DNA of 64,000 nt from TPA_inf: Saccharomyces (GCA_000146045.2 BK006941.2:1024001-1088000); one strand, 5' to 3'. Counted from the first letter of the stretch, positions 13,695 to 58,729 are shown. The notes: generated by a model not told the origin, from the letters alone. Numbers and translations are program-made.

Positions 13695-13799
13695 TGAGAC
13701 ACAATTAAAACAACAATTATTTTGTGAAAGATAACAGTGGAAATCTATCTAGTATACATCTTCGTATATATTTTCTTACATAACGCATTTAGAATTTTT

Positions 13800-14501: not shown

Positions 14502-14714
14502 TGATTGATTAGGTTTATTGAATGATATAAGTAAAATAACTAAGTCACGATATTTGTTTTATGTATTGTTTAATTGTAGAGATGAGATGAGTATGAAAAT
14601 TTTTTTGAATGTGTTTTTCTTAGTGCTCCGGCATAGGGTACCGCAGAAATTAAAGGAATACATATTTTTGAGCTTCAAGCACTTTTTATAATCTTAGCGT
14701 ACTTATCTTTATAT

Positions 14715-15239
14715 TCATCTGCAGAGTAACCGAGAAAGCCGTGATATGTGTCTTTTCTCCTTTTTTTTTTGGCTTTCCATAACTTTTTCTTCCAGTTGAG
14801 ATAAATTTATTGAAGCCTGTGAGTCTTGATTAATGACGGCAAATCCAGGTCTAGGTTTAAATCCCAACTTAGATGTTTCTAGCTCTTGCAACCAGCGGGG
14901 ATCTTTTGTTATGGAGTATTCAAATCCACGTATTGTATCCAATGGCCTTTCATTTCTTGCTCTTGTAGGATTTGAAATATCAGGTGTTTTTATATTCCTA
15001 CCAAATGTATCCTTCATGGATTTCAAATTTCCATCTTTATCGTAAATAACATAACCATTGCAAGTTGAGTTTTCTGTTAACGGATGTATCTTCTGTAAGT
15101 TAGAGAAAGTGGCTTCTTCAAAAGGCTGGGCTTCTTGAACAGCCTCGAGGATTGGAGCGGCCAAAGAAGAAGAGCGTAATTTAATTCTTGATGTATCATC
15201 ATCCTTTTCTATCTTATCTGAACTTTCGAAATGTTGCAT
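14715..15239 (-). CDS. Uncharacterised protein (YGR273C)
   Basis: 174-aa ORF with no motif I recognise. Assigned by position and length only. Confidence 0.55.
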   Translation of the reverse strand: MQHFESSDKIEKDDDTSRIKLRSSSLAAPILEAVQEAQPFEEATFSNLQKIHPLTENSTCNGYVIYDKDGNLKSMKDTFGRNIKTPDISNPTRARNERPLDTIRGFEYSITKDPRWLQELETSKLGFKPRPGFAVINQDSQASINLSQLEEKVMESQKKKEKRHISRLSRLLCR

Positions 15240-15894
15240 TTTTTGATAAACTATGATTTTAGAGCACTTCAGATATTACTTTAGGAAACTTTTGCTTTAA
15301 TATTCTTAACATTATAAAATTGACGACAGCATCACACTTTTGAGTGCGTCACAAATGCATATAAATGAAAAAAGGTAACTTAGTTGAGGAAAAAATAGAC
15401 ACAAATTAAAATTTTGATATAATTATAGTAATAAAACTACATAAATCATATTATATTTATCAAGACAAACAGGTTACTATAGGGAAAAAGATTAAATTTT
15501 GAGTAAGAATTTGCTTTTGTAAAGGAAAAGAGCAACCAGTATGAAAAATGCATATTAGGGAACCTTTTCTGCTATTGTCCTTTATGTTTTAACCTCTGTG
15601 ATTTCCAATCAGACTGGAAAAATACAAGCTTTAAATACTCGAGCACAAAGACAACAATTATTGTGTTTAATCAGTGAGTTGGGCTATATTAATGGAACTC
15701 AAATAATATGCACTTTTCATCTTACTGCAAAAGTGCACATTCACACACCACGTCCATCGTTTAAGGATATGACTCAATAAATTATCAATCTGATCACTGC
15801 CAGTGTTTAGAAACATAGTGTACATTTCTTTATTGTTACATTATACAAAACCTTTACAAAAGTTTTATTCGATCAATACATCGTTATACTGAAT

Positions 15895-18800
15895 CTACTT
15901 TGGTGAAGCAGGGTTATCTTTACTGCTATACATTGGACAAGATTTATTTGTTCTAATGTGCCCGATTTGTCCGCATGTAGCACATCTCCTTGTAGTGTTC
16001 TTACCTTTATTCCTGGCTGCTTTCCCGTCAGTTACACCGGCAAGGTCGCTACCATTATCCACAGAGTTTTCTGTTCTCGTGGCACCACCATTTCTCTTCG
16101 AATTTTGCCTTGCTGCTCTACGTTGCTGTGATTTTTCCAAATTAGCTAATTCTAGTTGCAACAGTTTTTTCTGTTTCTCAAGTTCTTCCAAGTTATTTAT
16201 CTTTGAAGTGTCCTCCTCTAACAATTTGTTAACATCTTCTTTATCCTGTTCTTTGATTTTTATATATCCTTGAATGACCCTAGGATCTCTTATGAAAATT
16301 GTCTGCCTTTGAATTATACCATTTTCATCTCTTTTCTTTCTAACAATCTTCAGAATTTTCTTATCATCTCTATCCGTCTTAACATGCTTGTTGGTCTGAT
16401 TAATCTCATCAGGATTGGTCATTTCCTCAAAAGGATTGCTTATGCTCAACGATTTTGTATGTGTATACCAGGTCTTCGCAATTTCTTCGTCGTAAGCTTT
16501 TTGCTGTTGAGCCACATTGTAGCTATGCGTGTTAGTGCCTTTTTTGTTTGAACTATTGTTATTACTGGAAGGAGAACCAGACTTAACAAAACCACCTTTC
16601 ATTGAAGTTTTCAAGAAAGAAAAACCTTCACCACAGCCCGTTGGGTCACCAACACCATGTATTTGTATCATAGCTCGCATTTGTGTTGAATTAATAAAAT
16701 TTTTTGTAATGTTCCATGGTAACAAGTTTTCTTCTAGAGATTTTAGCTTAGAATCAAAATTATATGCTTCATTATCTTCTTGGAATTGTAAGCCCTGACT
16801 CATTGATTCAACTTGGCTGATCTGCTCTGGCGTAATTAAACTTTTCACTGCTTCATTGTCTAACAATTTTTCATCATCTTTAAGCCTCCACAGACCTTTT
16901 TCAGGACCATCTCTTTGATATTTCATGAACTCCTTCACTTTTTGTCTGTTTTGTCCATAATCTTGGTCGGGAAAGTGCTTTGCAATGGGATCAATAGAAA
17001 TTGCCTTGCTGTGATTATGGTTTAGAATTCTATAAATAATCATTTTCAGTCTTGTAGCTTTCATTGATGTCACCTTTCTTGAATTAGGTCCGGGAATCTC
17101 CTCGACAGGAAAAGTTTGTCCAACCGTAAAAAGATGGTTAATATTACGTAAGTAAAATCGATTGCTTATACCAAATCCGGAACTTTTTGTCAGAAGAAAA
17201 TCTGTTCCTGATATATCATGTTTGAAAACGGGTGCTCTAATCATGTTATTGTATAATGTGGGGACGATATGACCAGGTTCAACAAATCCAAAGTTCCAAA
17301 ATGGTGATTTGTCTTGAACTCCCAAAACGTGAGTTTCGCCAACAGGCAATTTGGGCCTTAGAGTATCTTGTTCATTGGCTTTCCGATAATAATTAATTAA
17401 TTTATTGGCCATACCAAATTTAGACAAAGCTACCGGTGTTTGTTCAGAATATTCCATTAAATAAACAGGAGCAGTATCCCCGATGGTTAGATCTTGAGAT
17501 GTAGAAAATGATTCTTTGACATCTTTACCTTTATCTCTTTTCCTTTTACGCGCTTTTAACTTACTGAAGACAATTTTAGTACCTGGTCTGATGTGCGAAC
17601 CAAAGTTTTCACGGTGGAAATGCCTCAACTGGTATCTAGGAACAGCCACTTTGTAAAATGGAGATTGTAAATTAATCGCAGGTTGAGAATGCTGAATATT
17701 TAAGTTCGAGATGGTAGAACGAACTTTTGTTTGATGGGTTTTTTTCAAGATTTGATATTTATCATCATTAGATAAATTGAATTTTTGTTGCAAAATAGTT
17801 TCGTTGAGGGGCAATATCAAGTTACTACTATCCAGTTGTTGCTTTTGCTGCGCTAAATTATTTGTTTTCTCAATCATCAGCAACAGTTTTTCGTCATTCA
17901 TATTTAATTCAGCATGTTTAGACTCTTTCAATTTTGCATCAATGATCATGTCTTCATCCCACTGCCAATCTTCAGCAACATCCTCAATCAAGCTCTTCAA
18001 TTTATAACCGCCGGAGAACTTTAAGTTGGGTGTCATAGACGAATCCGCCAAGGTTGCTGTTGATGAAGTACCTTGGTTGATGATTTTTTCTTGGTCCCAA
18101 TCATCAGTGGCAATAAGCAAGTCTTCCGATATGGTCTTTTCATCATGAATAATCTTTCTTTTTTTTTGTTGCTCTTTGATAGGGAAAAGTTCATCAATGG
18201 AAACATGAATTAAACCTCTTCGGGATGCAGAAGAGTTACTTTGAAGTAAATTGTTTTTCCCTTGATAAATCGGAGCGACGTAAGATATTGTCCTTGAGTT
18301 GAATAGCCTCTTATCATCCTGTTGAACCTTGAATTTCAAATTTAAAGGCATAAACGGTTTCTTTACCCTAGATATTTCACTGTGCCAATGATAAGGAACA
18401 GATCTTCTATAAATCAGCTTGTTCCATTTTAAAATTTTACCCTTTTCAAAATCAGGAAAGTATTTTTTTAGAAGATACTTCTCATGGTTTATCAAGTCTA
18501 ATTTGGTGGCTTTCTTATGCTTGCCATCTGACATATCTGGTTCCATGATAAATCCACCATTTATCGACATATCATTTCCATTAACGCCACCAATGGAAAG
18601 TTGAGAATGCCCAATTTCATTTGCGCCACTACCATCAAGAACTCCAGTTTCAGTGGCGAGATGAATTTCATTTGCATCCATTCCCATAAACAAAGCATTG
18701 CTAGTTGCGGGAGTACCCCCATCATCCTCCAAAATAAACTGTTGAGACAAATCACCATTAATTTCAGGCAGTTGCATATTCAAACTATTTGAGTCGATAC

Positions 18801-40940: not shown

Positions 40941-43221
40941 ACTGCACTAAATTGAAAATAATCGGCTAAGTTAGCTCTTCTGAGGACACCACTACCAGAA
41001 GAGTAAGATCTGAAAAATTTTCAGCAAGTATGGGAGCAAAAAAAGCTTTGCCCTTTTATATAAGATCTGCCTAAGAGAAGAAATAAAAGATACCAAGAGA
41101 ATCTAGCAGAGTGGCAAACGAACTACATAGCCTGTAAATACAGATTAGGCAGCAGCGTAGCGGATTTTCCTCAGGCATCGTCTCTCACGTGAAATCTGTG
41201 GGGGCACCAGCGTGACAGGGACGGTTCTAATGCTTTGCACTTTTCAACAACTTTTTTCCATAACCAAATGCCGGCAAAATGGCTTCGAAGAAGACGCGAG
41301 ACTTCATCCGCGAGTCATCTCGACATGACTATCTTTTGCTAGCCAACACGCCCCTCCGCAACTTCCCACGATAAAATTGTAAAGAACAGTACTGATGGAC
41401 AGAGATTTGCGCAGTGGCATTTTTTGAAAATAAAATGAAAAATTATATATATATATTCCATACATAGTATATAATATGAACTCGTTTGACTTGGAAAATT
41501 TTAGATGCAACAGGCAATATCGTTGGGCTTTTTTATTTGATCATTAGCTTATTTGAATATGAAGGTAATGACCAAGGGCTACTAATGTCTTTCTATTAAG
41601 CCGTTTTACAATTGTATATTTTGTAATTTGCATCGCAGTCATAACTTCTTGCAAGAAATAGTAGTTTCACACAATGAGGTAGTTTCGTTGGAGATGCAGT
41701 AATAATGCAGAATACGGATCTCACGGACCCCAAGAGAAAGCTACGCAATCTTACGGCTTGTAGGTTCTCAGTTCCCAATCGATGCAAAATGGGTAAGTAT
41801 TTTCAAGACTGAAATAAGGTCGCTTAGAAACGGTTATCCATTTACTATTATCTGGAAGCTGCTTTCCACAGCTACCTACTTTGGAGTAATGGTTTCCGGG
41901 AAGACTTCATCCTAGAGCCTCTTGCTGTTGTTATTCGAAGTTCAGATTCGTAAATGGTAGTACGTTCTGCTTTCGCAATGAATAACTAGGTCACATAAGC
42001 CCTAAATGCGTCAGTAGAAGATCAGATGCATTGACCACATCATATCCTTCTAAAGTAATTAATTGAGATTTAATATTTTTCGTACTGATGAGAAAGCTAA
42101 ACTAGTGCAACTATTATAGTCACATTTGTACGGAAAAGGCAGAAGCAAGAACAATGACTTGAAAGAGCGTATAGCTATTTAACCATTTCCATTTGTATGC
42201 TATAATTCAAGTATTTCCACACTCTTAACTAAAACGAATCAGAAGAGTAGGCTACTAAGAAAGATGGCTATCCTTAATAAGTACTATCCGACGTTGAATT
42301 GAAGATTAAACTGAGCCACACATTCCCATCTTCTGCACACTTAGTTCCTTATTTAGAGACTTTTATGATAAAAATTTCTTCCGTTCACTGTTAAACAACC
42401 TTGGGAACAATGCTGACTGTGCAGGAAAATGACCTATGTTTGAAGGATGTTGCCACATAATTGAGGCATGTTAGCAGAGCATTCCCTACCACTGGAAGGA
42501 GTGATGGTTGATGTATTTTCCATTGAGACTGTGACATTGTGATACGATACCTAATCAACGACCCTATATAACTCATTAAAAATGGCTTTCTAGAAGCTAC
42601 ATCTATTTGATTAAATTGGTTCCCATTTTCACAAATATTTTGCCACCTCTCCTTCTCGCCAAGGATTTGTACAAAATTAACAGACCTTTTAGAATAAATA
42701 TTAAATTTAGGTCAGCAGAATACGGCCACCATCTCATTCTTTACTAGATCAAGCGTCAATTCCAATAATTATAAAAATATAAGTCAAGAAAGCATCTTTC
42801 TTCGAGTCTCCTGCATTCGGTTTGCGTTCCTCTCTCGTTCTGCTTGACAAAAGAAAGAGTTTTTTATTCTCCTAACCAATAAATTGAAGCAATCAGCTAT
42901 AGGGTTAGATGTATTCGTTTTCCTTTCTGACCCCTTATGTCCCCATTTGGAAGTTCTAAACAAATGCCCTTTGGTGCCCAGTATATGTCAATGACGTCTG
43001 CTTGGCGAATCTCTGAATCATAAGTGTTACATAAAAATTAAGTATCTACGGCGCAGTACAACGCCTTCGTCTGGTTAAAATCGACTCTTCTGTCATTAAC
43101 ATAAGAACGTATAACAAAAAAAAAATTATATCAATGTATACATAAAGCTACCCAAAACAAACTAAAACATCACTTTTGTAGGGTTTCTTCGCACATTATC
43201 ATTATTATTCTTTGAGAATAC

Positions 43222-44991
43222 TCATTCGCTGATATATATTCTTCCTTCCCATGGCTTCAATGTTCTGGAAGAGGCATCTACCTCCTTCTTTGGATAGTTT
43301 CCAAACTCTAACTTGAACGATGAATCATCATTTGGAATCTTGAAATCTGTCGCATCAGAGCTAAAGTTCAAAGCCGCAAACAATGTTTTATTGTTGTACT
43401 TCTTTGTGAAGCTAAACAACTTCTTATTGTCTAAATCAATAAACTCGAAATCGTATCCGTACACAGTAATGTCTTTATGCGCCTTTCTAAACTTCAAGGC
43501 CTCCTTCCAGAAGTTCAAAACCGAGTTGGGATCCTTGATTTCATCTTCGACGTTAATGCCTTCTCTGAAAGAGTCGTTCAAGTAAAACCATGGTTTAGCA
43601 CTAGGACCAGAAAAACCAGCATTTGGCTCCTCACGAGACCATTGCATAGGTGTTCTAGCATGGTCCCTGGAGATAAGGGCAATGGCTTCTAAAAACTTTT
43701 TCATCTCCTCTGAGTTTTCCCCATGCTCTTCTTTAATGGCATTGTAGTTGTTTCTGATTTCGACATCCTCGTACTTTTCAACAGGCCAGTTCTTGAAATT
43801 GATTTGGCCAAGCTCTTGTCCCTGATACACATATAGAGTACCGGTCAAGGCACTTAGCAACACAGAGAGTAACTTACCAGAAATAACACGGTTCTTGGGA
43901 GAATCGTCACCAAATCTCGTAATTGAACGAGGTTGGTCGTGATTTTCCAGATAGATTGTTGACCAACAATCTGTACCATTAATGTACCTGAACAGCTCAG
44001 CAAGGGCAATCTTCCAATCCTTCAGTTCAAATGGGACCAAGTTGTAACGGAACAAAGGTGAAGTCCCCACATCAGTGTGGGAAAAGTTAAATAACTCACT
44101 AAGTTCGTGTCTTGAAGCACTCGTATAAAGTCTCTTAGTTTCGTCGGAGGCATGTTGCATTTCACCAACTGTCATAATCTCCCTGCCATCCTTCACTCTG
44201 TTTCTGATGAATTGATTCATTTCTTGATGGAACTCGTGAATACGTGGTCCATTCAATGTGTATGGATCACTGGATTGCCAAGTCGAGTTTTTGTCAACAA
44301 CAGGAGCATCTGGTAAACCTACAACTTTGGAGTACAAACTTCCGACATCAATTCTAAAGCCGTCTACACCATGGTCTAACCAGTATCCAACGGCACTTTC
44401 GTAGATTGCCTTTCTACAGTCTTCATTCTCCCAATTCAAATCAGGTTGAGTGGAGCAAAACAAACGCAAGTAGAATTCTTGTGTCTTTTCATCGAAGGTC
44501 CATGCGGAACCACCAAAATAGGATTTCCAATTGTTTGGAGGAATTGGCTTGCCTTCGGCGTCATAACCTTTAGGAGGTCTCCAGAAGAACCAGTCACGCT
44601 TTGGATTAGTCTTCGAGGATCTGCTCTCTTTGAACCATTCATGTTCGCTGGAACAGTGATTGATGACCAAGTCGGTGATAAATTTCATACCAAGCTTATG
44701 TGTCTTTTCGATCAAGGCAAAGCAGTCTTCATTCGTACCATATGTTGGCCAGACCTTTTCGTAGTTGGCAATATCGTAACCCATATCATCTTGTGGCGAG
44801 TCGTAGAATGGTGAGATCCAAATGGCATCGGCACCAAGCTCTTTGATGTACTCCAGCTTGGAGGCAATCCCTTTCATGTCACCCCAGCCATCGTCATTAG
44901 AGTCTTTGAAACTTGCTGGGTAAATTTGATAGAACGTGGCCTCTTTCCACCACTTTGGTTCTGTCTCTGGATGTGCAGAAGAAATAGTCAT
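43222..44991 (-). CDS. IMA1: Alpha-1,6-glucosidase (isomaltase), GH13
   Basis: 589-aa [22 protein letters not shown]..., GH13 alpha-glucosidase. About 70% identical to the MAL12 ORF in the same window. Confidence 0.88.
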
Positions 44992-46292
44992 CGATAGTAA
45001 ATATTACGTTGAAAAGCTTTGTTTGTATCTTGTTTGATCTGTGCTTGCTCGATTAATTTGAGACAGCTTTTTTATTTCAAAACAGGCGTCTAACCAAACG
45101 TCTAGCAACTCAATATCATTGCCCTTAAGTACTTTTTATTTCAAAAGGAGATCCTTTCTCATTCTGGGGTAAACTGTGGTATGACGAAAACCATGAAAAA
45201 TAAGGAACATAATTTATCCGAGTATTTCAACGATCCCAAGTACTGACATAAACTTTAGTAGCCAATTTATAGCGTGGGGTGCCTACTTCGTCACATTTGA
45301 TATCGTACAGCGAAAAAACATTAGTAACTTTATTTCCTTATTTCAGGGCCACTTTTCTCGAGAATAACGCTGCGTGCTGAGCGGTTGTTCACACCGCGGA
45401 GTTGGAAACTTTATTCTCCGAAATATTCTCCCCACTAAAATATCCTTACGTATTGTGAAACTTAGTTTTCTTTTTGTATTAGGGTGTAATTTCTTATTTT
45501 CCCTGTATTTCACCGCATGCAAATTCTTACGATATTTACTCCGGTAAACGCAGTTAAGAGCTATTGTCCGGTCCGACTGAATGAATATTCGGTTAGAAAC
45601 GCATATTTGTGGGGAAATAACAACCTCAAAGATATAGACGGAGCAGTACCGTAAGGTTTACAGAATGGCATGACCACCCACAATAAAGCAAGGACCTCGA
45701 GACACATGCCTTTCAAAATAGAAATAAAGGTTTTCGAACATCATTTTTCGCTTGTTGTATAGTAGTCTTTACAGTAACAGTGCATCTGAGTACAGGAACG
45801 ATTGTCTTGATAATATGTGAAAAGTGCACACGAAATTAGAGGGTGTCCTTTACAAGTATTCTTAGAAACACATTCAAGAGCACAAAAGTCGATGCTTTAA
45901 GGGTCAAGGTGGTGGAAAACTTGACTGGAATTCTTGACGAAAAAACAAGAAAAACGTGATTCGAGCAATCATAAACATACAGCCCCGTTCCAACCGGATC
46001 TTGAGGTTTCCCATTTTAGATGGAAATAAGCAGAGCAAAATAAAAATCTTGAACAAGTAATAGTGGTGACTGCAGGTTACGTTGGCATATAAAGTCCGGG
46101 TGACCTGGGTTTCCTGCACCACCAGCCCCCATATGCTAGCACAATGGGTTTTCTTTATCCCCGGTCATAATTACTCATTTTGCTATATTCTTCATAACTT
46201 AAGTACGCAGATAGAGAAAATTAATAATCTCGATATATATTAAAGTAAATGAAAAGTAGAAAATTTAGCCAGAACTCTTTTTTGCTTCGAGT

Positions 46293-47714
46293 ATGACTTT
46301 AACTAAGCAAACATGCGCCAAGCAGGCATGCGACTGCTGTCGTATTCGTCGAGTGAAATGCGATGGTAAAAGGCCGTGTAGCAGTTGCCTACAGAATAGT
46401 TTGGATTGCACTTATCTGCAACCGTCGAGAAAAAGAGGTCCGAAGTCCATTAGGTTGAGGAGCTTGAAAAGAATAGCAGAAGTGCAGAGGGAAAGCGGTC
46501 CTAACACCATTGCAACTGCTCCTGTAATATATAAGAGGGTTCCCAAAAAGCTAATCGATCAGTGCTTGCGGCTCTATCACGATAATTTATACGTAATCTG
46601 GCCCCTTCTTTCGTACGATGACCTTCACAAACTTCTGGAGGAAAAATACAATGACAATTACGTATATTGGTTTCTGACCGCTTTATCAGCGGCCACCCTC
46701 AGTGATTTACAAACTGAAATAAAATCTGAAGAGGAAGTCACTTTCACGGGAAAACAGTTATCTAATCTTTGCATCTCATCGTGTCAGCAATTTGACGATT
46801 TGGATAACAGCAATATATTCAATATTATGACGTACTACTGTTTGCATCGTAGCTTTGCACAAATATCGAACGCAAGAACTTCTTACAGACTCTGTTGTGA
46901 AGCGGTCGGTCTGATTACGGTAGCAGGGTTACATCGGGAAGAAACTTACGGATCCCTTACATTTGAAGAACAGCAACTTAGACGGAAACTTTATTACTTG
47001 CTTCTCATGACGGAGAGATACTATGCCATATATCTTCATTGTGCGACGAGCCTGGATGCCACAATAGCACCACCGCAACTTGAACTTGTAACTGATCCTC
47101 AGCTTTCTATGGACAGTTTCCTTGAAATGATTAGGGTATTTACTGTACCAGGAAAATGTTTCTTCGATGCTTTAGCCGCTGACTCTACAGATGCTTCTTG
47201 CACTGAAGAGTCATTGAAAAAGATATGGAACGAACTCCACACAACTTCCTCGGAAATAGAGCCATGGTCTAACGGTTACATAGACATCTCATTTTCCCGG
47301 CATTGGATTAGGATACTAGCATGGAAGCTAGCTTATCAAATGAGGGGTAGCAACTTTTCATTGAACGCTAACAATGGGCAAATACCAATAGAAATTGCGA
47401 GAGATATGTTAATAGACACTTACTTAACCCCAGAGAATCTTTACGATGTCCATGGTCCCGGGGTACCAGTGAAAACATTAGAAATAGCTACTGCTTTGGT
47501 GGACATTGTAGGCCAGTATGATCATAACATGAAATTAGAAGCATGGAATGTTTTGCATGATGTATGCAAATTTGCTTTTTCTTTAAACCACTATAACAAT
47601 GATATGCTGAAGAGATTTTCCACCAAATGCCAGAATGCCCTAATTACTCTGCCCATTTCTAAACCTTTACAATTGGATGGTTATCCCAAGGATAATGAAG
47701 ACATAGACCCTTGA
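46293..47714 (+). CDS. MAL13: MAL-activator family Zn2Cys6 transcription factor of the MAL1 locus
   Basis: 473-aa ORF with Zn(II)2Cys6 cluster CAKQACDCCRIRRVKCDGKRPCSSCLQNSLDC at residues 8-39. Confidence 0.85.
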   Translation: MTLTKQTCAKQACDCCRIRRVKCDGKRPCSSCLQNSLDCTYLQPSRKRGPKSIRLRSLKRIAEVQRESGPNTIATAPVIYKRVPKKLIDQCLRLYHDNLYVIWPLLSYDDLHKLLEEKYNDNYVYWFLTALSAATLSDLQTEIKSEEEVTFTGKQLSNLCISSCQQFDDLDNSNIFNIMTYYCLHRSFAQISNARTSYRLCCEAVGLITVAGLHREETYGSLTFEEQQLRRKLYYLLLMTERYYAIYLHCATSLDATIAPPQLELVTDPQLSMDSFLEMIRVFTVPGKCFFDALAADSTDASCTEESLKKIWNELHTTSSEIEPWSNGYIDISFSRHWIRILAWKLAYQMRGSNFSLNANNGQIPIEIARDMLIDTYLTPENLYDVHGPGVPVKTLEIATALVDIVGQYDHNMKLEAWNVLHDVCKFAFSLNHYNNDMLKRFSTKCQNALITLPISKPLQLDGYPKDNEDIDP

Positions 47715-49962
47715 TTAATTTTCATTTTTGTGCATCTCAACTTCCTGGTAAGTGATAGCTTTCCATTGTAGAAACTGTGTTTCCGCAACACAAGGGTAAA
47801 ATTCACTGCTAATTGCGACCCATTTTCATGAACAGAGTAATTAATTTTCTATTTGGAGGTCTACTTTTACAAGTATAAGACTGCTTCTTACCATGATGTC
47901 TCCCTATTGAAAATTATATTTAATAAAATACTTTTAGGCACGCTAACGTTAGCATTCTTCCCAGAATTCCTATACTAACAGTTTTCAGTATATATACACT
48001 TTTTTACTGAGTGCTAAGAGCCAGATTGGATGAGATGATTGTGTACTGATGGGAGACAAGTTTAGCTTGAATAGGCTAGCTGCAATATGGATACTTTCAC
48101 TCTCATCCTTTCGCTTTTGTGATTTAATTAGCATAATCAAGATGACTTTATATACAGCGCGTTGAAGCACTTAGTGCCATGTAATTACCTCATACTATTG
48201 TTGAAGAACTGTATAATAAAGTTTTGAAATTTTTCAGTGTTTGAGAAGTATTATATTTCCACATTGTAGCTAATGAAATCATACTTTCGTCAGCACTGAC
48301 GCTCAAATGAATGATATGAAGTATTGCTCGACCGTTATAATGGAGCACTAGTTGAAGGGCAGAGGAACAAGTGAAATACAACAGCTGAGTGCAGATAAGT
48401 GCTATGGTTTGTTGATAATATTACTTAGAAATGGTGTATTCAGCATTGATAAGAAAGGGGCGGTACTTTTTGCTACCATGTTGCTACCTCTGGGATTTGG
48501 ATATTTGAGTGAATCACCATTCGCTTATTCAATACAGAGAAGATAGATAAATGCCAGTTAATTTTAGGAGGCAAGATATTATTGTCATTTATGTTTGCCA
48601 TTTAAAGCAACATTTTTATGGCAGAACATAACATTAAAAGAATCCGATCTAAATTTAACTATAATAGTTACTAGATACGGACATATCTCTAGGAACTATG
48701 AAGGCTGAAATGTCTAGAACTTTGGAAAAGAGATGTCCTTTCTGCGTAGCTTAATTCATTTCCTTCCTAAAAAGTCCGTAGAAAGAACACTGCACCTCGC
48801 CTTGGGCAGGCTCCTCAGTGAAAACCGAAGAAAAAATACTACAAATAAAAGAAGCGCGATGATACTTGTTTTAGATATATGGTTTACATCTCACAGAAAA
48901 CACGTAGCCCTTGACGCGGGGAAATTAGAAAAGAAGCGATGTTTTTCACAATAATGCAATATATATCTCTATTCTTAGTAATAATAACAATATCTACTGA
49001 AGAAAAGTAATACGCCACATGAAGACTAACGACTTTATAACCTCTCGCAAGGCAGACGAGGACTGTCAGACCATTGAAAACTTGACGAACTTGTACACTA
49101 GTAGATTTCCCATATTCTTCCTCCGGTTTTTTGAAATCTTGTTTGACTTTATACTGAAAAATAGATCAAAGAAGCCATATCAGTGGCGGCTAATTAGGTA
49201 ATATTTATAAAACAATTCCATTATATTCAAATTCAAAGTGATAGATTTTTGAATCACAATTTCTAATTAGAACACCTTCACCACATACTGCTAACACGAA
49301 ATTTACCTAATTGTTTGTGAGGATGACGACCACATGGGTTTGATTTTTTTTACTAATCGCTTTTGTATATCAAATGCAATTTATTATTATTTTCATGTCA
49401 CCAAGAAAGAATAATTCTTTGAAATGGTTGTTTATATCCTCAGAATTGGAAAATTATTTGCCAAGCGATTGTGAAACTATGTGATATGTTTTGAGATATT
49501 TCATGAACCATATAGAATATGCATAGTATATCCCAATAAAGCATTGAATTATGAATGTCGTATCTCTATAAGCTCTCACATTAATGCTTCAAAAATACTT
49601 CATAAAACATTATAATATAGTTTAATGTGATTTTTGCGTGATTCTCTCCTTCTTTTTATTAAGTGTATGGACATTTAAAGTAACAGTTAATTGAGAATAC
49701 GGTTGACCTGGCATGTTGTTCGAATCAATATCCAGGCACAAGTACCAGGTGCTAAAGAAAAAGTACTCTCATATTTGCTTGATTGCTGCTTGGGCTATTT
49801 TAACTAACTACTAACAATATTTTGCTTAAAAAATGGTAAATATGAATGTTTTACAGAAAAATAAAAAATGTATATATATAAAATCTCGAGCTAGCTGAGG
49901 GTTTTGGGAGCAGTCAAAGGGATTCCTTATTTCTTCCAAAAAAAAAAAAACAACCCTTTTAC

Positions 49963-51813
49963 TTAACATTTATCAGCTGCATTTAATTCTCGCTGTTTTA
50001 TGCTTGAGGACTGACTGATACTCTCATCAGCTAGCGAATCATGTTGAGTTTTTCCCTTTCCGAATGGATCAACCACAGTAGATGCAAATTTTCTGGCAGG
50101 AACCCCTTGGTTGAAAAGTTCATTAATTTCACTGAAGGTTCTACCAGTTGTCTCAGGCAGATCGATGATGACCCAAGCTAAAGTGACTGCTGTGAAACCA
50201 CCCCAGTATAGACCAGTTTTGGCACCCCAGTTCCAATCGCTCACGTTTAGCATATAGGGCGTTAATATAGCGTTAATAACGGCCATGAGATTGTAGCAAA
50301 TACGGGCCAGCACTATAGTCTTAGTTCTCAACTCCGCTGATGGAATTTCAGCAACGATACAGTAAACAACTGCACCGATACCAGCATTGTAAAAGAATGA
50401 TAAAGCCAGCAATAAACCACCGGCACCATTACTAGCGCTGCTTCCAGAACCAAAACCCATTCCACCAATAATAAATAAGCAGACCATTTGAAATGCAAGA
50501 CCATAGGTCAGTATTGTCCATCTACCAACACGGCCAGATATTACCCAGGAGCAAAGTGTACCCGCTAACCCAAGACAGTACTGAATTAGAGAAAAAGTAA
50601 ACGCCTTGTCGGTGGCCATACCTGCTCTTTCAAAAAAATATGTCGAGTAACCAAGTAAAACGGCACCGCTACTATTTTGAGCTACCCAAGTTAAACATGC
50701 AAGTCTCGTTCTTCTTCCATTAACTCCCTTGAAACAATTAAAGAATGATCCTGATTTAGATGCTAAAAGTCTTTCTTTTTCAATAGTCAATTCAATCTGC
50801 TTTAAAGTAAGATCAACTTGAATGTCCTTCTCGGCGCCTTTACCACTCAAAATTCTGCTTAAAGATTTTCTTGCCTCAGCGACCCTATCCTTTCTCACCA
50901 ACCACCAGGGCGACTCAGGAGCGAAAAAGATACCGATCATTAAAGGAGCAGGCCAAATCCATTGTAAAGCAAATGGCAATTTATAGCCCAAGTCGGAGTT
51001 CCCTAAATTCTCTTGTGAGTTTTTCATAATACCAGAGGCGAAGATTTGACCAAATAACCAACAAATGTTGGAGTAACTGGTCATGTAATATCTTAATGCT
51101 AAAGGGCAAACTTCCGAAGCATAAGTAACAGCCAAACTTTGGAAACAACCCCATGGTATAGCTGAGAGAATTTGTCCCACAGCAATCATAGCTAAACTTT
51201 TACAGTAGTAGAGGATAAAGATATAAGCAGTTAACAAACCAAGTGCTGTAATCATCGTATAACGATTCCCCATAAATTCAACCATATAAGTCGTGATTTG
51301 CAAACCAATCATCTCACCACAAAGGACACACATGTTTAAACCAATCTGCCATTGGGAAGTAATTTCGTAAGAACCCTCCCCGTTCAAAGTACCGAATTTT
51401 CTCTGAAAAACTGGCAGGGCATACAGTGCGCTCAGTAGTGCGGTATCATAACCTTCCATAACCAGGGTAGTAGACACTAATATGGACCACAGGGCTGCTT
51501 TTGGATATTTTAGCAACGCCTGCTTCAAAGTCATGCTTTTTTCCTCGCTGTTAGCTTCATTTGCATCATCAGTAGCGTTCATCTCATTAATCACATTCTC
51601 GTTATCTTCGTCAGAATCTCCTAACTGGGCTGAATTGGTGGTGAACTCTAAGTGGTCTAGCTCAAAGGCACTATCCTTTTTCCCTTCTTCAAAATCTTCA
51701 GTATTGAAAACCTCCTGTTGGTTTACAATATCTCTTGAAGACTCAGAAATGTTTTTATCCTCATTTTTTGAGGCAGCCTTCTTCTTGCTTACCAATGAAA
51801 TGATATTTTTCAT
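49963..51813 (-). CDS. MAL11: MFS alpha-glucoside/H+ symporter (AGT1-type maltose/maltotriose permease)
   Basis: 616-aa ORF, MKNIISLVSKKKAASKNEDK..., with 12 predicted TM segments typical of sugar porters. Confidence 0.88.
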   Translation of the reverse strand: MKNIISLVSKKKAASKNEDKNISESSRDIVNQQEVFNTEDFEEGKKDSAFELDHLEFTTNSAQLGDSDEDNENVINEMNATDDANEANSEEKSMTLKQALLKYPKAALWSILVSTTLVMEGYDTALLSALYALPVFQRKFGTLNGEGSYEITSQWQIGLNMCVLCGEMIGLQITTYMVEFMGNRYTMITALGLLTAYIFILYYCKSLAMIAVGQILSAIPWGCFQSLAVTYASEVCPLALRYYMTSYSNICWLFGQIFASGIMKNSQENLGNSDLGYKLPFALQWIWPAPLMIGIFFAPESPWWLVRKDRVAEARKSLSRILSGKGAEKDIQVDLTLKQIELTIEKERLLASKSGSFFNCFKGVNGRRTRLACLTWVAQNSSGAVLLGYSTYFFERAGMATDKAFTFSLIQYCLGLAGTLCSWVISGRVGRWTILTYGLAFQMVCLFIIGGMGFGSGSSASNGAGGLLLALSFFYNAGIGAVVYCIVAEIPSAELRTKTIVLARICYNLMAVINAILTPYMLNVSDWNWGAKTGLYWGGFTAVTLAWVIIDLPETTGRTFSEINELFNQGVPARKFASTVVDPFGKGKTQHDSLADESISQSSSIKQRELNAADKC

Positions 51814-52287
51814 ATTATACTATTTTTTTAGTTGTTTGATGTTCTTCTATGTAGCATCAGAAAGAAACACCAACCCGAAAATTCTTCAAACAATCAATAC
51901 CAAACCGCTTTATATAAAAAATTAAGATGTCGACATTCCTTATTTTTTACTGAGTTCGTTAAAGTTGGGTACACTCTTGATTACTGTAATTGTCTCTGTA
52001 TGTCCCTCAAGCCCGGTACGTTGTCATTTTCTAGTACGCATCAACGGAGTGTTACATGATAGATAGACCGAGTAGAATCTATGGCTATGGGGTAATTAAA
52101 ACCTTAAAGCTCCTTTCGCTGCCATAGTAATACGAATAGACCTTGGCTATAGTAAGTTGCATCTGTACCGTAGAGATTCTTGCAACTCGCTTAAACTCTC
52201 GCTTTTAGATAATATTTCTCCTTATTGCGCGCTTCGTTGAAAATTTCGCTAAACACGGGGTTTAAGTTAAAGTTTACAGGATTTATC

Positions 52288-52302
52288 CGGAAATTTTCGC
52301 GG
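52288..52302. promoter_or_regulatory. CGG-N9-CGG Zn2Cys6-type site (candidate MAL-activator UAS) in the MAL11-MAL12 divergent promoter
   Basis: CCGGAAATTTTCGCGG, with a related half-repeat GAAAATTTCGC at 52238-52248. Lies midway between TATATAAA (51911-51918, for MAL11) and TATAAAAA (52490-52497, for MAL12). Confidence 0.5.
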
Positions 52303-52598
52303 ACCCCACACAATTAAGAATTGGCTCGAAGAGTGATAACGCATACTTTTCTTTTCTTTTTTTAGTTCCTAGCGTACCTAACGTAGGTAACATGATTTGG
52401 ATCGTGGGATGATACAAACAACGTAAGATGAATAGTTCCTTCCTCAATTCTTCTTGCAGCATCATTTTCTTGAGGCGCTCTGGGCAAGGTATAAAAAGTT
52501 CCATTAATACGTCTCTAAAAAATTAAATCATCCATCTCTTAAGCAGTTTTTTTGATAATCTCAAATGTACATCAGTCAAGCGTAACTAAATTACATAA

Positions 52599-54353
52599 AT
52601 GACTATTTCTGATCATCCAGAAACAGAACCAAAGTGGTGGAAAGAGGCCACAATCTATCAAATTTACCCAGCAAGTTTTAAAGACTCCAATAACGATGGC
52701 TGGGGTGATTTAAAAGGTATCACTTCCAAGTTGCAGTATATTAAAGATCTTGGCGTTGATGCTATTTGGGTTTGTCCGTTTTATGACTCTCCTCAACAAG
52801 ATATGGGGTATGATATATCCAACTACGAAAAGGTCTGGCCCACATATGGTACCAATGAGGACTGTTTTGAGCTAATTGACAAGACTCATAAGCTGGGTAT
52901 GAAATTCATCACCGATTTGGTTATCAACCACTGTTCTACAGAACACGAATGGTTCAAAGAGAGCAGATCCTCGAAGACCAATCCGAAGCGTGACTGGTTC
53001 TTCTGGAGACCTCCTAAGGGTTATGACGCCGAAGGCAAGCCAATTCCTCCAAACAATTGGAAATCTTTCTTTGGTGGTTCAGCTTGGACTTTTGATGAAA
53101 CTACAAATGAATTTTACCTCCGTTTGTTTGCGAGTCGTCAAGTTGACTTGAATTGGGAGAATGAAGACTGCAGAAGGGCAATCTTTGAAAGTGCTGTTGG
53201 ATTTTGGCTGGACCATGGTGTAGATGGTTTTAGAATCGATACCGCTGGTTTGTATTCGAAACGTCCTGGTTTACCAGATTCCCCAATTTTTGACAAAACC
53301 TCGAAATTACAACATCCAAATTGGGGGTCTCACAATGGTCCTAGGATTCATGAATATCATCAAGAACTACACAGATTTATGAAAAACAGGGTGAAAGATG
53401 GTAGAGAAATAATGACAGTCGGTGAAGTTGCCCATGGAAGTGATAATGCTTTATACACCAGTGCAGCTAGATACGAAGTCAGCGAAGTTTTCTCCTTCAC
53501 GCACGTTGAAGTTGGTACCTCGCCATTTTTCCGTTATAACATAGTGCCCTTCACCTTGAAACAATGGAAAGAAGCCATTGCATCGAACTTTTTGTTCATT
53601 AACGGTACTGATAGTTGGGCTACCACCTACATCGAGAATCACGATCAAGCCCGGTCAATTACGAGATTTGCTGACGATTCGCCAAAGTACCGTAAAATAT
53701 CTGGTAAGCTGTTAACATTGCTAGAATGTTCATTGACAGGTACGTTGTATGTCTATCAAGGTCAGGAGATAGGCCAGATCAATTTCAAGGAATGGCCTAT
53801 TGAAAAGTATGAGGACGTTGATGTGAAAAACAACTACGAGATTATCAAAAAAAGTTTTGGTAAAAACTCGAAGGAAATGAAGGATTTTTTTAAAGGAATC
53901 GCCCTACTTTCTAGAGATCATTCGAGAACTCCCATGCCATGGACGAAAGATAAGCCCAATGCTGGATTTACTGGCCCAGATGTTAAACCTTGGTTTCTCT
54001 TGAATGAATCTTTCGAGCAAGGAATCAATGTTGAGCAGGAATCCAGAGATGATGACTCAGTTCTCAATTTTTGGAAAAGGGCCTTGCAAGCCAGAAAGAA
54101 ATATAAGGAACTTATGATTTATGGTTACGATTTCCAATTCATTGATTTAGACAGTGACCAGATCTTTAGCTTCACTAAAGAGTACGAAGACAAGACGCTG
54201 TTTGCTGCTTTAAATTTCAGTGGCGAAGAAATTGAATTCAGCCTCCCAAGAGAAGGTGCTTCTTTATCTTTTATTCTTGGAAATTATGATGATACTGACG
54301 TTTCCTCCAGAGTTTTGAAACCATGGGAAGGTAGAATCTACCTCGTCAAATAA
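52599..54353 (+). CDS. MAL12: Maltase (alpha-1,4-glucosidase), GH13
   Basis: 584-aa [21 protein letters not shown]... in a divergent pair with MAL11. Confidence 0.88.
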
Positions 54354-56305
54354 AATTAGTGCCGGCTTTTTTTTAGCGCGTACTTTAACGAAATAACACA
54401 TGATTTTTCACATGATTTTTGTTAGATAAATTTTTTATATGTAAATGATGATAGCGTAAAAGCACTGTTGATAATTTGTTTCACCATTATGGGTAAATGT
54501 GTTTTTCTACATGACCCTCGTTCATTATGATATTTAGCGTGTATATAAATGTGAATTCCAAATTATTAATGAGGCATAAGAAGCACTATCCTTTCTCTTC
54601 GGATGAAAACAAGGGAGAAGAAACCTGTGCTGGTATTAATGCTGAAATGTCTTGCTAAGAATCATACAAGGTGGTAGTTTTATTTAATAAAGAAAAGAAA
54701 AGGACTAGATATAAAAAGTGAAATGAATATAAGATAGCGTTAAGAGATGTCCGCAGTACTTGACACATAATTTAGCGTTTTCTCGGGAAGCTCTGTGATT
54801 TTATGATTCAATAACACAGCGTAATTGATTTCGTGATAGTTCGATCCTATATGTAATCTCACGTAACACTCAGGCGAGTTACAAAATCGATTCAACATTG
54901 CCGGCTTATGCGTTTACGTCAAGTCTGAGCATGCCTACCCCCTTCCGAACCCGCCTTTTATTGTCTAGCCTTCAGATGAACTAAACCAATCATCTGTCCA
55001 TAATTCCTCTGCTTTAGACAGTGTTATTAAGCAAAAGAAAATAAGCGCATAAGATTCTTGCTACTTCAGTAACTCCACAACATTAACACCCCACAATCAA
55101 TATCTAAAAGCCAATGAAGTGAAGATGAGAGGTGGAATGACGGTCTTATCCTTTGAGAAGTTTGACTACTAAAATCTGTGTCTCCTATACCATTAGTTAT
55201 TGAGCTATAACTATATACCAGAGAAGTGTAGTAATTCTTCAGCAACGGGCCTATAATCTGGATACGTATGATTACTTATCGCTGTAATAGTTGTAAATTC
55301 CTCGAAGAAAAACACATGACCAGAATGATAGACATATTGAAACAGTGAATAAAAGGGAGAAAAAGGCTTAAAGGATTTCTGTATTAGTAACACTAAGCCC
55401 TCTATCAATTTCATCCAAACAGAAAGACTGCAGGTACATCCATAGGATAGAAGTTCTGTATGTAATCCGCCACTTTTTGTCTCCTTCATGTACCATATAA
55501 TGAATAGAAAAACGTAGACCTAGGCGGCAACCGTTGCCTACCATACGAAGCGCTGATGCTGTTCTCCGATTATTAGTATTACAAAAAAAATTATACAATA
55601 CTTATTAAGATGTTAACTTATCAATTTCCGGTATAGTTTCCGCTATGGTCAGCTTTGTCCAGTGGAAGTTCCGCTGTTTCAGAACTAGAGCTTCGTAGCA
55701 CCTCGAATGCTCATTTATTCTTGTCAACATTTTTGCTGGCAGTGTATAAGACTGTAGACACCTACAATATACGACTCCGGTATTCGATAAGTCTTTCACT
55801 TTCTATTTTAAGAAAAACAGAATCTACAATTTTCCCGTAGCAACCGTTTAGCGCACAAAGATTAGATGGCCTCTGAACGAGGGTTCAAAGCAAATTTGGT
55901 TTTAGCTTTTTCTTGGCCAAAAGCTGCAGCTGCATCTCTGAAGGCACCCTAAAGGGATTCTTCGGAAGTATGTACACTGTGAGAAAACATTCTTGTGCCT
56001 TGGAAATGCAATAAAAAGGTATAGGCACTATGAAGCGTGCGCCTCGTATACGGGACCTATGAAAGACGCATCGTTCAAGTACAGAAGCACCGTAATAATA
56101 TGAATAATGAATGTGGGATGAACATTGTACACTGAGGCATTTTAGGTGAGAGATGGGTGCCAGATGATAACTCGTTTGTGCCAGGGAAGTTGGCAAGACA
56201 TTCATATAAATAGAGCTGCTGTAGCTATCCATCTTTGAGGTATGCGCTTTCATTTCACTATTTCTTGTTAAGCTTACATCAGCACTAAAAAACAAAACAA
56301 ATACA

Positions 56306-56668
56306 ATGGTCAAACTAACTTCAATCGCTGCTGGTGTTGCCGCCATCGCTGCTACTGCTTCCGCAACCACCACTCTAGCTCAATCTGACGAAAGAGTCAA
56401 CTTGGTTGAATTGGGTGTCTACGTCTCTGATATCAGAGCTCACTTGGCCCAATACTACTCTTTCCAAGCCGCTCATCCAACTGAAACCTACCCAGTTGAA
56501 ATCGCTGAAGCCGTTTTCAACTACGGTGACTTCACCACCATGTTGACTGGTATTGCCCCAGACCAAGTGACCAGAATGATCACCGGTGTTCCATGGTACT
56601 CCAGCAGATTAAAGCCAGCCATCTCCAGTGCTCTATCCAAGGACGGTATCTACACTATCGCAAACTAG
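56306..56668 (+). CDS. PAU12: Seripauperin (PAU family cell-wall mannoprotein)
   Basis: 120-aa [23 protein letters not shown]... with signal peptide and the conserved PAU core ([25 protein letters not shown]). TATAAATA box at 56205-56212. Confidence 0.8.
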
Positions 56669-57583
56669 AGACAAACGCCTTTACGAACGAAATTCCATAA
56701 ACCTTAAGAAATAACGAAAATAAAAAAAGCTTTTTTTTTTTGATAGTATAAATAGTTCATTATATGTAAGTGTATATTAATATTGTTACTACTGGTCAAT
56801 CGTGATATTTATGAACAACTTGGCGGAGCAAGGACAAGAATCCTCTCTTCCTTTTGTGGTATTCTTCGATGTGTGTCCACTTCAACGACATGGGTCATCA
56901 ATATCTATGTTGAAAAAATCATATTTTAGGATCACTTGCTAGTAAACCGGTTGATGCTATTGTTAATATATAACGACAAATGTTCAAGCAATTATATAAC
57001 CATTTTCTTCCATATTCACCTTAAACGAGGTCGCCTTTATTTTTTTTTTTTTTTTCAGGGCATCGATCGGCCCGGAGTCGTCGCCTTCAAATGTGTCAAA
57101 TTTTTAAGATTAAAGTTATCGATCTTGAAGTTTTTCGTGGCAGGAGGGTTTCTATTTAGTGTTCGGTAAAGGCTTTCATAAGCTTTTGTATATCCCTTGA
57201 TTAACAATAAATGTGGAAAATAAGAAGGGTAATTTGTGAAAGAGTCCGATTCTAGTCGATGTACAGTAAAATCACTTATTATTTAAGGATTCCGCTGCGG
57301 TATGCGTTTTCTACTGATGCGTGGAGCAAGCCACGCCATGTGATTAACCTTGCTTGATAAAAGCACCAACCCATCGTTCAGAATATGCATGGAATATAGC
57401 ATCACTGGGAGGAGAAAGACAATAAGTTTTGCGCATATGGTAGGATGGTGGCACACTGATTTCTGTCAACCAGTGAGAAATAGGGAAAAAGAAAATGGTT
57501 GTAATGGTAAAAAGTAGTCTCGTTTTGGTTATTCGCAGCTGACAAACTACAAAATATATAAATTGAAAAAGTTGTATTTATCT

Positions 57584-58729
57584 TTACGCTAAGGACTCCT
57601 CACTGCAGGATAATTGCGCTTCTTTAATATATGGCCATAGTTCCACATTCAATGATAGAGCCCGCATAGATTTCTTTGCAGAGAGAACGCGGTAGAAGAA
57701 GTGGCTAAAAAACCATTCACAGTCAATCCCGTCAAAGAAAAACTCTTCATTCTTCCAGACTTTTTTCTCAAACAAGTACCTATTCATTTTCTTTGCAATT
57801 TCGTCCCATCCATTTGCACCACTTTCTTGCTCATTTATAATAGTCGATAAAAACTGCATCTTGTGTTCCATTTTCACGGATAAAACGATCATCCTCATAT
57901 TCCGGAAATCTCTCGTCATGATAAAAAACAGCACCACAAGAAACAAGGGACGTGCTATAGTGCCATCATTTCGTGAAATGAAGACATTATGCAAATAAAA
58001 AAGGAAGAGTGGTAAACACCGCCGGTTGAAAATCCTTTTGAGAACCCAGGTAAGCTTAAATCGGTAAGCTTCCTTGGGAAGTTTAGCATCTTCCAGGCCA
58101 ACAGGGCTCCATGATTTCTCAGAATTAAACAACTTCCATTGTTTTTCAACTTCTGTAAAATAAACTTCCAATGCTTCTTCAATGTAAGGGACGGAATCCT
58201 TAAATGACTTAACCTTGGCAGCTTCGTCTTTTTTCAAAGAGAAGGGTTCGAGAAGGGTTGTTCTGAATGCTTCTTGGCAGCTCATGGCACTGAAAAAAAA
58301 GTACTTGGTATTCCAAGCCTTATTTTCATAGAAGTACGAATTTAGATTTGCTGCAACGACTTCCCAATCATGAGGATCCGAACTTGGTGTGTTTTTAGTA
58401 ATCTCTTTGCAAAACTGAGTGAGTTGTTTCGATAAGGAACGTTTACGAGAAAGTCTAAAAATAACAAGAACAAATACTGGTCCCCAAAACAGGACAAGAA
58501 GTGAAACCATAAGCGGGTAAATCCAATTGTTGGAAAGTTTCCACCAGACGCTAAGTGGTAGCCATAATAGCATCCAGATGCGAAACACTAAGGACTTGTA
58601 AATTTCATAACAAAACCAGGTAAAGCTGCTTCTGAAAAGATCTTGAGGTAGAACAGTCTTTTGGGATTCGAGCTGTTTGACGGATAATACATCTACACTC
58701 TTCTCATTTTTAAGTTCATTCTCTTTCAT
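57584..58729 (-). CDS. COS6: DUP380/COS-family subtelomeric membrane protein
   Basis: 381-aa ORF with N-terminal TM helices and typical COS family sequence. Immediately proximal to the X element. Confidence 0.78.
   Translation of the reverse strand: MKENELKNEKSVDVLSVKQLESQKTVLPQDLFRSSFTWFCYEIYKSLVFRIWMLLWLPLSVWWKLSNNWIYPLMVSLLVLFWGPVFVLVIFRLSRKRSLSKQLTQFCKEITKNTPSSDPHDWEVVAANLNSYFYENKAWNTKYFFFSAMSCQEAFRTTLLEPFSLKKDEAAKVKSFKDSVPYIEEALEVYFTEVEKQWKLFNSEKSWSPVGLEDAKLPKEAYRFKLTWVLKRIFNRRCLPLFLFYLHNVFISRNDGTIARPLFLVVLFFIMTRDFRNMRMIVLSVKMEHKMQFLSTIINEQESGANGWDEIAKKMNRYLFEKKVWKNEEFFFDGIDCEWFFSHFFYRVLSAKKSMRALSLNVELWPYIKEAQLSCSEESLA

Follow-up and report, generated by a model that had tools for sequence, protein, structure and literature searches.

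How two related glucosidase genes came to stand in opposite orientation on either side of a MAL cluster is the question raised by positions 43222-54353 of the Saccharomyces DNA studied here, a stretch of 64,000 nt (GCA_000146045.2 BK006941.2:1024001-1088000) that is called the window in its whole length. This segment is the MAL1 locus at the right end of S. cerevisiae chromosome VII, an assignment that follows from its four-gene content and from its BIO2-like, COS-like and PAU-like neighbours. The answer that we consider probable is that IMA1 and MAL12 are ancient GH13 paralogs held in a conserved four-gene module, into which short conversion tracts have later been written, from an IMA gene to the MALx2 gene. 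The four genes are the following.

43222-44991, minus strand: IMA1 (YGR287C), oligo-1,6-glucosidase (isomaltase), 589 aa; open reading frame (ORF) with PF00128 (E 9e-176)
46293-47714, plus strand: MAL13, Zn2Cys6 MAL-activator homologue, 473 aa; ORF with PF00172 and PF04082
49963-51813, minus strand: MAL11 (AGT1), alpha-glucoside:H+ symporter, 616 aa; ORF with PF00083 (MFS sugar transporter)
52599-54353, plus strand: MAL12 (YGR292W), maltase, 584 aa; ORF with PF00128 (E 1e-169)

The ORF calls agree exactly with the ends, strands and lengths given to IMA1 and MAL12 by an earlier sequence-only reading of the window, as well as with their inverted placement on either side of MAL13 and MAL11. The gene components of a Saccharomyces MAL locus are found, namely the Zn2Cys6 activator, the MFS permease and the maltase, the latter two being divergently transcribed. 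Both glucosidases are members of GH13, as both contain the alpha-amylase catalytic domain PF00128, and both keep the catalytic Asp/Glu/Asp residues (D215, E277 and D352, in the Ima1 numbering of the structure literature). The IMA1 product matches the PDB entries 3A47/3A4A/3AJ7, 'Oligo-1,6-glucosidase', over its full length (1397 bits). At the residues that set specificity, 158, 216-219, 278-279, 307 and 411 (PMC3519909), Ima1 reads YVGSLMQDE (Y158 V216 G217 S218 L219 M278 Q279 D307 E411) and Mal12 reads FTAGLVAED. As these nine residues agree with the isomaltase and maltase signatures, YVGSLMQDE and FTAGLVAED respectively (PMC6070925, Table 2), Ima1 is of isomaltase type and Mal12 of maltase type.

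The two proteins are identical at 423 of 587 positions (72%, E = 0, 5 gap positions by BLASTP), in line with the ~70% over the whole length noted earlier, and their genes are 73.3% identical in the codon alignment and 74.6% over 1644 nt by blastn. Collinearity spans the whole coding sequence (CDS) rather than being confined to short catalytic motifs, and an inverted-repeat finder returns two arms of 523 nt at 85% identity (44458-44980 and 52607-53129), 7626 nt apart. The blastn alignment begins precisely at both ATGs (44991 and 52599) and stops ~13 nt before the stop codons. The flanks were compared with blastn at word size 7 and E <= 10, 40941-46292 (reverse-complemented) against 51814-57583; homology beyond the CDS, the mark of a segmental duplication, was not found on either side under these settings, which returned only chance matches of 12-28 nt in the 1.3 kb and 0.8 kb upstream and in the 2.3 kb and 3.2 kb downstream. 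The view that similarity stops at the ATG, with unrelated promoters, is thus borne out, as the promoters contain no alignable sequence. The mapping of duplication breakpoints by alignment of the two flanks, which had been recommended, was carried out in this way and is ruled out as a route to the duplication, because at such an age of the IMA1/MAL12 split the flank homology is gone.

Inside the CDS, the similarity is uneven. Over the first 90 nt, identity is 93% (81/87, and one indel of 3 nt); the near-identity that had been pointed out there is real, and the string quoted for both genes is exact in MAL12 but differs at one position in IMA1. The similarity peaks, however, not at the 5' end but in MAL12 nt 349-467, with 97.5% identity (3 differences in 119 nt). 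The proportion of synonymous differences (pS) is 0.24 in codons 1-30 and 0.16-0.37 in codons ~106-165, and it exceeds 0.75 over most of the 3' two-thirds, where the synonymous divergence (dS) is not estimable. At conserved residues, codon identity is 0.70 in the first 220 codons versus 0.50 in the rest (Fisher P = 4e-5). Two causes probably account together for this pattern: a strong amino-acid conservation over the 5' third, and short ectopic conversion tracts from an IMA gene to MALx2 (~119 nt, and ~98 nt in some strains).

The split between the two genes is old. Their overall dS is ~1.6, which is effectively saturated, and a public protein search finds Ima1-like proteins of 83-84% identity in three Lachancea species, a genus that also has Mal12-like proteins, 68-72% identical to Ima1. 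In a neighbour-joining tree of 63 full-length family proteins with 100 bootstraps, Saccharomyces and Lachancea genes occur together both in an Ima1 clade (bootstrap 97) and in a Mal12 clade (bootstrap 100); these clades are sisters (bootstrap 88), and Ima5 falls in a separate clade. Since both clades contain genes of both genera, the IMA/MAL split is older than the Saccharomyces/Lachancea divergence, and it is neither recent nor locus-specific. These genes are those of the S. cerevisiae MALS family (MAL12/MAL32 and IMA1-5), for which ancient duplications of a promiscuous ancestor have been described as the origin of the Mal12/32, Ima1-4 and Ima5 clades (PMC3519909, citing Brown, Murray and Verstrepen, 2010). 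Our tree and the signature residues reproduce this account, without any difference in kind. Beside the yeast proteins, one labelled Fusarium falciforme (P0063) aligns with S. cerevisiae Ima1 over 74% of its length, at 83% identity; its contig is 32 kb long, and the protein probably stems from yeast contamination of that assembly, or otherwise from a transfer.

The arrangement of the locus was compared across species and strains, the counterparts of IMA1, MAL13, MAL11 and MAL12 being written IMA, MALR, MALT and MALS.

S. mikatae, left end of chromosome 16 (L015): IMA(-) 1989-3758, MALR(+) 5055-6446, MALT(-) 7300-9156, MALS(+) 10001-11755; order as in the window
S. kudriavzevii-type contig of the hybrid VIN7 (L023): IMA(-)-MALR(+)-MALT(-)-MALS(+); order and orientation as in the window
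Another S. cerevisiae strain (L019): IMA(-)-MALR(+)-MALT(-)-MALS(+); MALR and MALT alleles different from those of the window
S. eubayanus chromosome II (L003), 7198-11770: IMA divergent from a MALT gene and occupying the MALS slot of the window
S. eubayanus-type locus in S. pastorianus (L024), 5759-17558: MALR(+)-MALT(-)-MALS(+)-MFS(-)-IMA(+)
L. dasiensis: IMA-type and MAL-type genes in direct orientation at a distance of 8 kb, separated by a phosphatase and an epimerase gene
L. meyersii, L. fantastica and Z. parabailii: IMA-type gene solo

The S. mikatae locus is collinear with the window by blastn, including ~430 nt of the MALS promoter and a block downstream of MALS, and similarity ends at most ~20 nt from the IMA stop codon; MAL13 is collinear with the MALR genes of S. 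mikatae and of the S. kudriavzevii-type contig (72% nt identity). The inverted arrangement is present in these two; it is absent from the S. eubayanus-type loci, in which IMA lies in direct orientation relative to MALS and forms a divergent pair with an MFS transporter of its own, and from Lachancea. The comparison with other MAL loci that had been suggested thus turns out both ways, the inverted unit recurring in three Saccharomyces species and the S. eubayanus-type and Lachancea genes being arranged otherwise. The inverted order of the four genes goes back to the ancestor shared by S. cerevisiae, S. mikatae and S. kudriavzevii, and the chromosome end at which it lies differs between species; IMA(-)-MALR(+)-MALT(-)-MALS(+) is then probably one subtelomeric module in this group, which may have moved as a unit. 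In CEN.PK, IMA1 copies are reported on CHRIII, VII and XI, the CHRIII copy being in the same region as MAL23-C (PMC5424818), so that the chromosomes with IMA1 include those bearing MAL1 (VII) and MAL2 (III). Because the four-gene unit is collinear in S. mikatae and the S. kudriavzevii-type contig and because IMA1 lies on MAL chromosomes of CEN.PK, IMA appears to have belonged to the Saccharomyces MAL module from the start, and not to be a late add-on. The presence of IMA in a conserved four-gene module of at least three Saccharomyces species means that the three-gene cluster may be the derived, truncated form. Lachancea synteny was also considered as support for an ancestral four-gene unit and fails in this respect, L. 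dasiensis having its genes in direct orientation and the others a solo gene.

The MAL clusters of non-conventional yeasts (PMC6070925) resemble this module in that one bidirectional promoter serves a glucosidase and a transporter, an activator being often close by; more than one glucosidase is present in some of them. Unlike them, the Saccharomyces module has a second, specialised glucosidase beyond the activator and in inverted orientation. A non-subtelomeric cluster was observed in L. mirantina (L002, 2666-11797, internal to a 1.5 Mb chromosome), with the order AG1(+), a gene encoding 517 aa (-), a MAL11-like transporter (-) and AG2(+). The MAL11 protein is 53% identical to this transporter. 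The two glucosidases of this cluster are in direct orientation with no recognisable MalR between them, as the 517-aa protein is not similar to Mal13; the transporter-adjacent gene was considered as MalR and ruled out, not being a MalR homologue. In another S. cerevisiae assembly (GCA_000977595.3; L005, 2150-11770), IMA1 and MALS are ~1.5 kb closer to each other than in the window, with no MALR or MALT gene called in between, which may reflect a structural variant or pseudogenes.

Two other histories have to be weighed against an ancient split followed by life in a shared module. In the one that the sequence-only reading favoured, an old inverted segmental duplication copied the glucosidase gene across MALR-MALT, and the copy became the isomaltase, as a fourth gene added to the classic cluster. 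The inverted placement of the genes at 7.6 kb from each other, the sister relationship of their clades, the inverted layout common to three Saccharomyces species and the two gene types kept within 8 kb by L. dasiensis are what such an event could have left behind. The absence of homology past the ATG or the stop codon, the saturated dS, the presence of Lachancea genes in both clades and the other layouts found elsewhere, that is the IMA-type gene of Lachancea, either standing alone or in direct orientation and separated by unrelated genes, and the direct S. eubayanus-type IMA paired with its own transporter, nevertheless leave the claim of a local duplication unsupported, and a three-gene MAL3-type locus (L022) may equally be a truncated four-gene unit. 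What stands of the earlier view is thus the GH13 paralogy, the inverted orientation and the old age; the local event that added an isomaltase to a three-gene cluster does not stand, given that both clades exist in Lachancea and that the four-gene unit of S. mikatae and of the S. kudriavzevii-type contig includes IMA. We hold this history to be unlikely. Nothing in the sequence demonstrates an ancient local duplication, and a later rearrangement of tandem transporter-glucosidase pairs could also have given the inverted layout. A horizontal transfer or introgression of subtelomeric genes could alternatively have put both types into Lachancea and Saccharomyces, and the duplication could then be young and local. 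The identity of the Lachancea Ima1-type proteins to S. cerevisiae Ima1 is indeed high for the distance, and the glucosidase genes are subtelomeric in several species. At conserved residues, however, the codon identity of S. cerevisiae and Lachancea orthologues is 0.41-0.47 (0.43-0.44 with L. dasiensis), which is the saturated background and makes a recent transfer unlikely; moreover, the Lachancea genes and the Saccharomyces genes form their own subclades within each clade, and no dS well below saturation was seen between the Lachancea and Saccharomyces genes compared. With synonymous sites saturated, a recent transfer is rejected, and we give the whole scenario very little credit.

The preferred account, that of ancient paralogs in a conserved module, has as its second part the conversion tracts, of which the first, tract A, is the most similar stretch mentioned above.

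52947-53065, plus strand: tract A in MAL12, IMA-type sequence (MAL12 nt 349-467, codons ~117-156; alignment nt 352-470)
44522-44640, minus strand: IMA1 counterpart of tract A, IMA1 or a close IMA paralog being the probable donor

The comparison set was made of the IMA and MALS genes of S. mikatae and the IMA gene of S. eubayanus, to which the IMA and MALS genes of the S. eubayanus-type and S. kudriavzevii-type loci were later added. Over the whole gene, the informative (quartet) sites support orthology in 213 cases of 269, versus 27 and 29 for the two other groupings, but none of those between alignment nt 361 and 450 does so. In 90-nt windows over nt 361-495, the paralogs are 0.97 and 0.92 identical, versus 0.82 and 0.78 for the orthologues. 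Whereas MAL12 has only the 3 differences from IMA1 in tract A, it has 19/119 from MALS of S. mikatae, 19/119 from the S. eubayanus-type gene, 19/119 from X14 and 17/93 from the S. kudriavzevii-type gene, and only 10/119 and 12/119 from the IMA orthologues (S. mikatae and S. kudriavzevii-type). The contrast between tract A and the rest of the gene is significant (Fisher P = 2.4e-6; permutation on diagnostic sites, P = 0.0023). Furthermore, the peptide DAEGK of tract A is found in S. cerevisiae Ima1 and in all the S. cerevisiae MALS proteins examined, and is absent from MALS of S. mikatae and of the other species sampled. These results, which rest on a paralog-versus-orthologue contrast with four MALS references, are the signature of an IMA-to-MALx2 gene conversion in the S. 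cerevisiae lineage, carried by the S. cerevisiae MALS DNA examined. The direction is from IMA to MAL, because IMA1 and MAL12 of S. cerevisiae each show fewer tract A differences from the IMA orthologues (10-13/119) than from the four MALS orthologues (14-21). The tract stops one codon short of the specificity residue 158.

A second tract, tract B, is polymorphic among S. cerevisiae strains.

44417-44514, minus strand: IMA1 stretch identical to MALS alleles of other strains (tract B; 0/98 differences from MALS of L019 and L022)

The MALS alleles P0015-P0019, from other S. cerevisiae strains, show five consecutive Ima1-type residues at Ima1 positions 169-183; the Mal protein of L019 type, which has such residues there, reads H at position 158. 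At the DNA level, the L019/L022 MALS allele is identical to IMA1 at 98 of 98 nt (alignment nt 478-575) and differs from MAL12 of the window at 22/98, as compared with only 10/1195 differences from the same gene 3' of alignment nt 560 (Fisher P = 3e-27). The corresponding MAL12 segment of the window (53073-53170) is MAL-type, so that tract B is absent from S288C-type MAL12. In the alleles that have it, tract B brings the Saccharomyces IMA-specific residues C179, T181 and P183 into a MALS backbone, between specificity residues 158 and 216, and it is found both at a chromosome VII-type locus beside IMA (L019) and at an IMA-less chromosome II-type locus (L022). Tract B is thus a second IMA-to-MALS conversion tract.

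Purifying selection on the protein, on the mRNA or on codon usage could also keep stretches of two old paralogs near-identical, here codons 1-35 and ~117-160. Both stretches lie where the protein is most conserved, residues 118-157 being identical between Ima1 and Mal12, and W, F, K, D, N and Y, amino acids with few codons, are frequent in them. For the first 90 nt, which are 83-93% identical in all comparisons, this is the better explanation: the paralog-versus-orthologue contrast gives P = 0.06 and the excess vanishes in the DNA-level alignment, so that conversion is not retained there, and the 5' near-identity, which had been read as a trace of the duplication, is better explained by conservation than as a remnant. 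The tracts do not lend themselves to the same explanation. The tract A orthologues encode almost the same peptide yet differ by 16% (19/119), compared with 2.5% for the paralogs; DAEGK is a non-synonymous feature common to S. cerevisiae IMA1 and MALS and absent from the other MALS; the four MALS orthologues tested argue against tract A being IMA-like in every species; and constraint cannot account for two alleles of a single gene that show 0/98 and 22/98 differences, respectively, in tract B. Constraint is accordingly improbable, in our view, as the origin of the near-identical stretches, and conversion on a conserved background is preferred for the tracts.

Several points weigh against the account of ancient paralogs, module and tracts taken as a whole. 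The tree is distance-based with 100 bootstraps, not a maximum-likelihood one, some of its deeper nodes are weak, and the node that unites the Ima1 and Mal12 clades has only 88% support. The S. mikatae, S. kudriavzevii-type and S. eubayanus-type loci are represented by one genome each, and S. paradoxus is not directly included. A strict clade-diagnostic test of tract A has only 5 sites, because the S. eubayanus IMA gene is itself divergent there, and its run-length permutation is not significant. The similarity of the first 90 nt is not assignable to conversion. The actual donor of the tracts could be any of the IMA1-4 genes, IMA2-4 DNA being outside the comparison, and selection at residue 158 as a tract boundary is deduced from position alone.

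Further observations on mosaic sequences were made in the same family. The 580-aa S. cerevisiae MALS alleles P0029 and P0030 present a different mosaic at ~18 N-terminal diagnostic residues, neither Mal12-type nor fully Ima1-type, which may come from a further exchange with an unsampled family member. In L. mirantina, the AG1 and AG2 DNA sequences are ~0.74-0.92 identical (mostly near 0.9) over the first ~165 codons and 50-70% identical thereafter, a 5'-biased homogenisation that resembles the S. cerevisiae pattern. The S. eubayanus-type MALS gene is closer over nt 1-351 to S. eubayanus IMA (36-39/261) than to the other MALS genes (50-53/261), which suggests an independent 5' conversion in the S. 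eubayanus-type lineage.

The sequence of events probably began with the IMA1/MAL12 split, before the Saccharomyces/Lachancea divergence; in the group of S. cerevisiae, S. mikatae and S. kudriavzevii, the two genes share the module in inverted orientation, and the enzymes have diverged in specificity, as seen in their signature residues, and in regulation, with one Yfl052w-type site versus three Malx3 sites. The nearby inverted arrangement may have aided conversion, and selection on the specificity residues may have limited the extent of the tracts. In a wider and more tentative form, to which we give somewhat less than an even chance, IMA-to-MALS conversion would be recurrent and still polymorphic in S. 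cerevisiae, would be 5'-biased also in the S. eubayanus-type and L. mirantina pairs, and would yield a mosaic shaped by selection on specificity, its tracts keeping to the intervals between the specificity residues and the inverted layout supplying a nearby donor.

Much of this picture is already known: the literature covers the paralogy and how old it is, the divergence of the two enzymes in function, the rewiring of their regulation and the occurrence of IMA1 on chromosomes that bear MAL loci (III and VII), and the locus is a textbook case of subtelomeric gene-family evolution, the IMA1/MAL12 paralogy having been dissected as far as the resurrection of the ancestral enzyme. To this the conversion tracts add little, being of a kind already described. 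No description of IMA-to-MALS conversion tracts was found in the literature searched, from which Brown et al. (2010) and the supplementary list of PMC3512402 were left out, and PMC3519909 does not use the term 'gene conversion' at all (0 occurrences). Ectopic recombination and chimaeric alleles have been described in subtelomeric gene families (PMC3512402), as have chimeric MALT transporters (PMC6448828; PMC6448821). As in these systems, we observe short tracts between diverged paralogs and strain-polymorphic mosaics; unlike in these systems, the partners are enzymes of different substrate specificity, only ~73% identical overall, and the tracts, of ~100-120 nt, are confined to the conserved 5' third. 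Strain-variable IMA-to-MALS tracts matter for phylogenies and ancestral reconstructions that assume an independent evolution of the paralogs, and also for the strain typing of MAL alleles.

The regulatory divergence can be followed in the two promoters, which contain the following sites.

45503-45517, minus strand: Yfl052w (MalR-type) site CGGTGAAATACAGGG in the promoter of IMA1, ~510 nt upstream of its ATG
52188-52302, no strand assigned: upstream activating sequence of the divergent MAL11-MAL12 promoter, with three Malx3 sites (52188-52202, 52247-52261 and 52288-52302)

The IMA1 site is identical to the 'Scerevisiae IMA1' site and the three Malx3 sites equal the 'Scerevisiae MAL12' TFBS1-3 sites (transcription factor binding sites) of Supplementary Data 1 of PMC4172970. 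The published sites of the MAL regulon are thus at their expected places, one at IMA1 and three between MAL11 and MAL12, which fits the separation of a palatinose/isomaltose circuit from the maltose circuit described in the same study. Two differences from the published motif were noted. The IMA1 site is degenerate and falls outside the strict CGG-N9-CGG pattern, for which the IMA1 promoter contains no match; a search with this pattern consequently failed to reach the regulator site, which was located through the supplement of PMC4172970. The third Malx3 site (52288-52302) fits both CGC-N9-CG and CGG-N9-CGG, and is the sole CGG-N9-CGG match in the MAL11-MAL12 intergenic region, in agreement with the reported response of MAL11 to Malx3 as well as to Yfl052w. 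The IMA1 promoter has, in addition, a second degenerate element with CGG, CGGAGAATAAAGTTTCC...CCGCGG (45395-45420, minus strand); it resembles the CGGAGAAATTCTCGG sites listed for the IMA genes of S. paradoxus and S. mikatae and is not the site chosen in that paper.

Downstream of MAL12, a 120-aa ORF (56306-56668) and a 381-aa ORF (57584-58729) are consistent with a subtelomeric position; at the counterpart of this locus in another S. cerevisiae strain (L019), members of the PAU/SRP1_TIP1 and DUP/COS families occur. In that strain, the MALT-MALS promoter (L019, 9241-9590) contains three tandem copies of a repeat with a 147-bp period, of which the window has one (52129-52184), immediately upstream of Malx3 site 1; repeats of 147 bp have previously been reported from MAL promoters.

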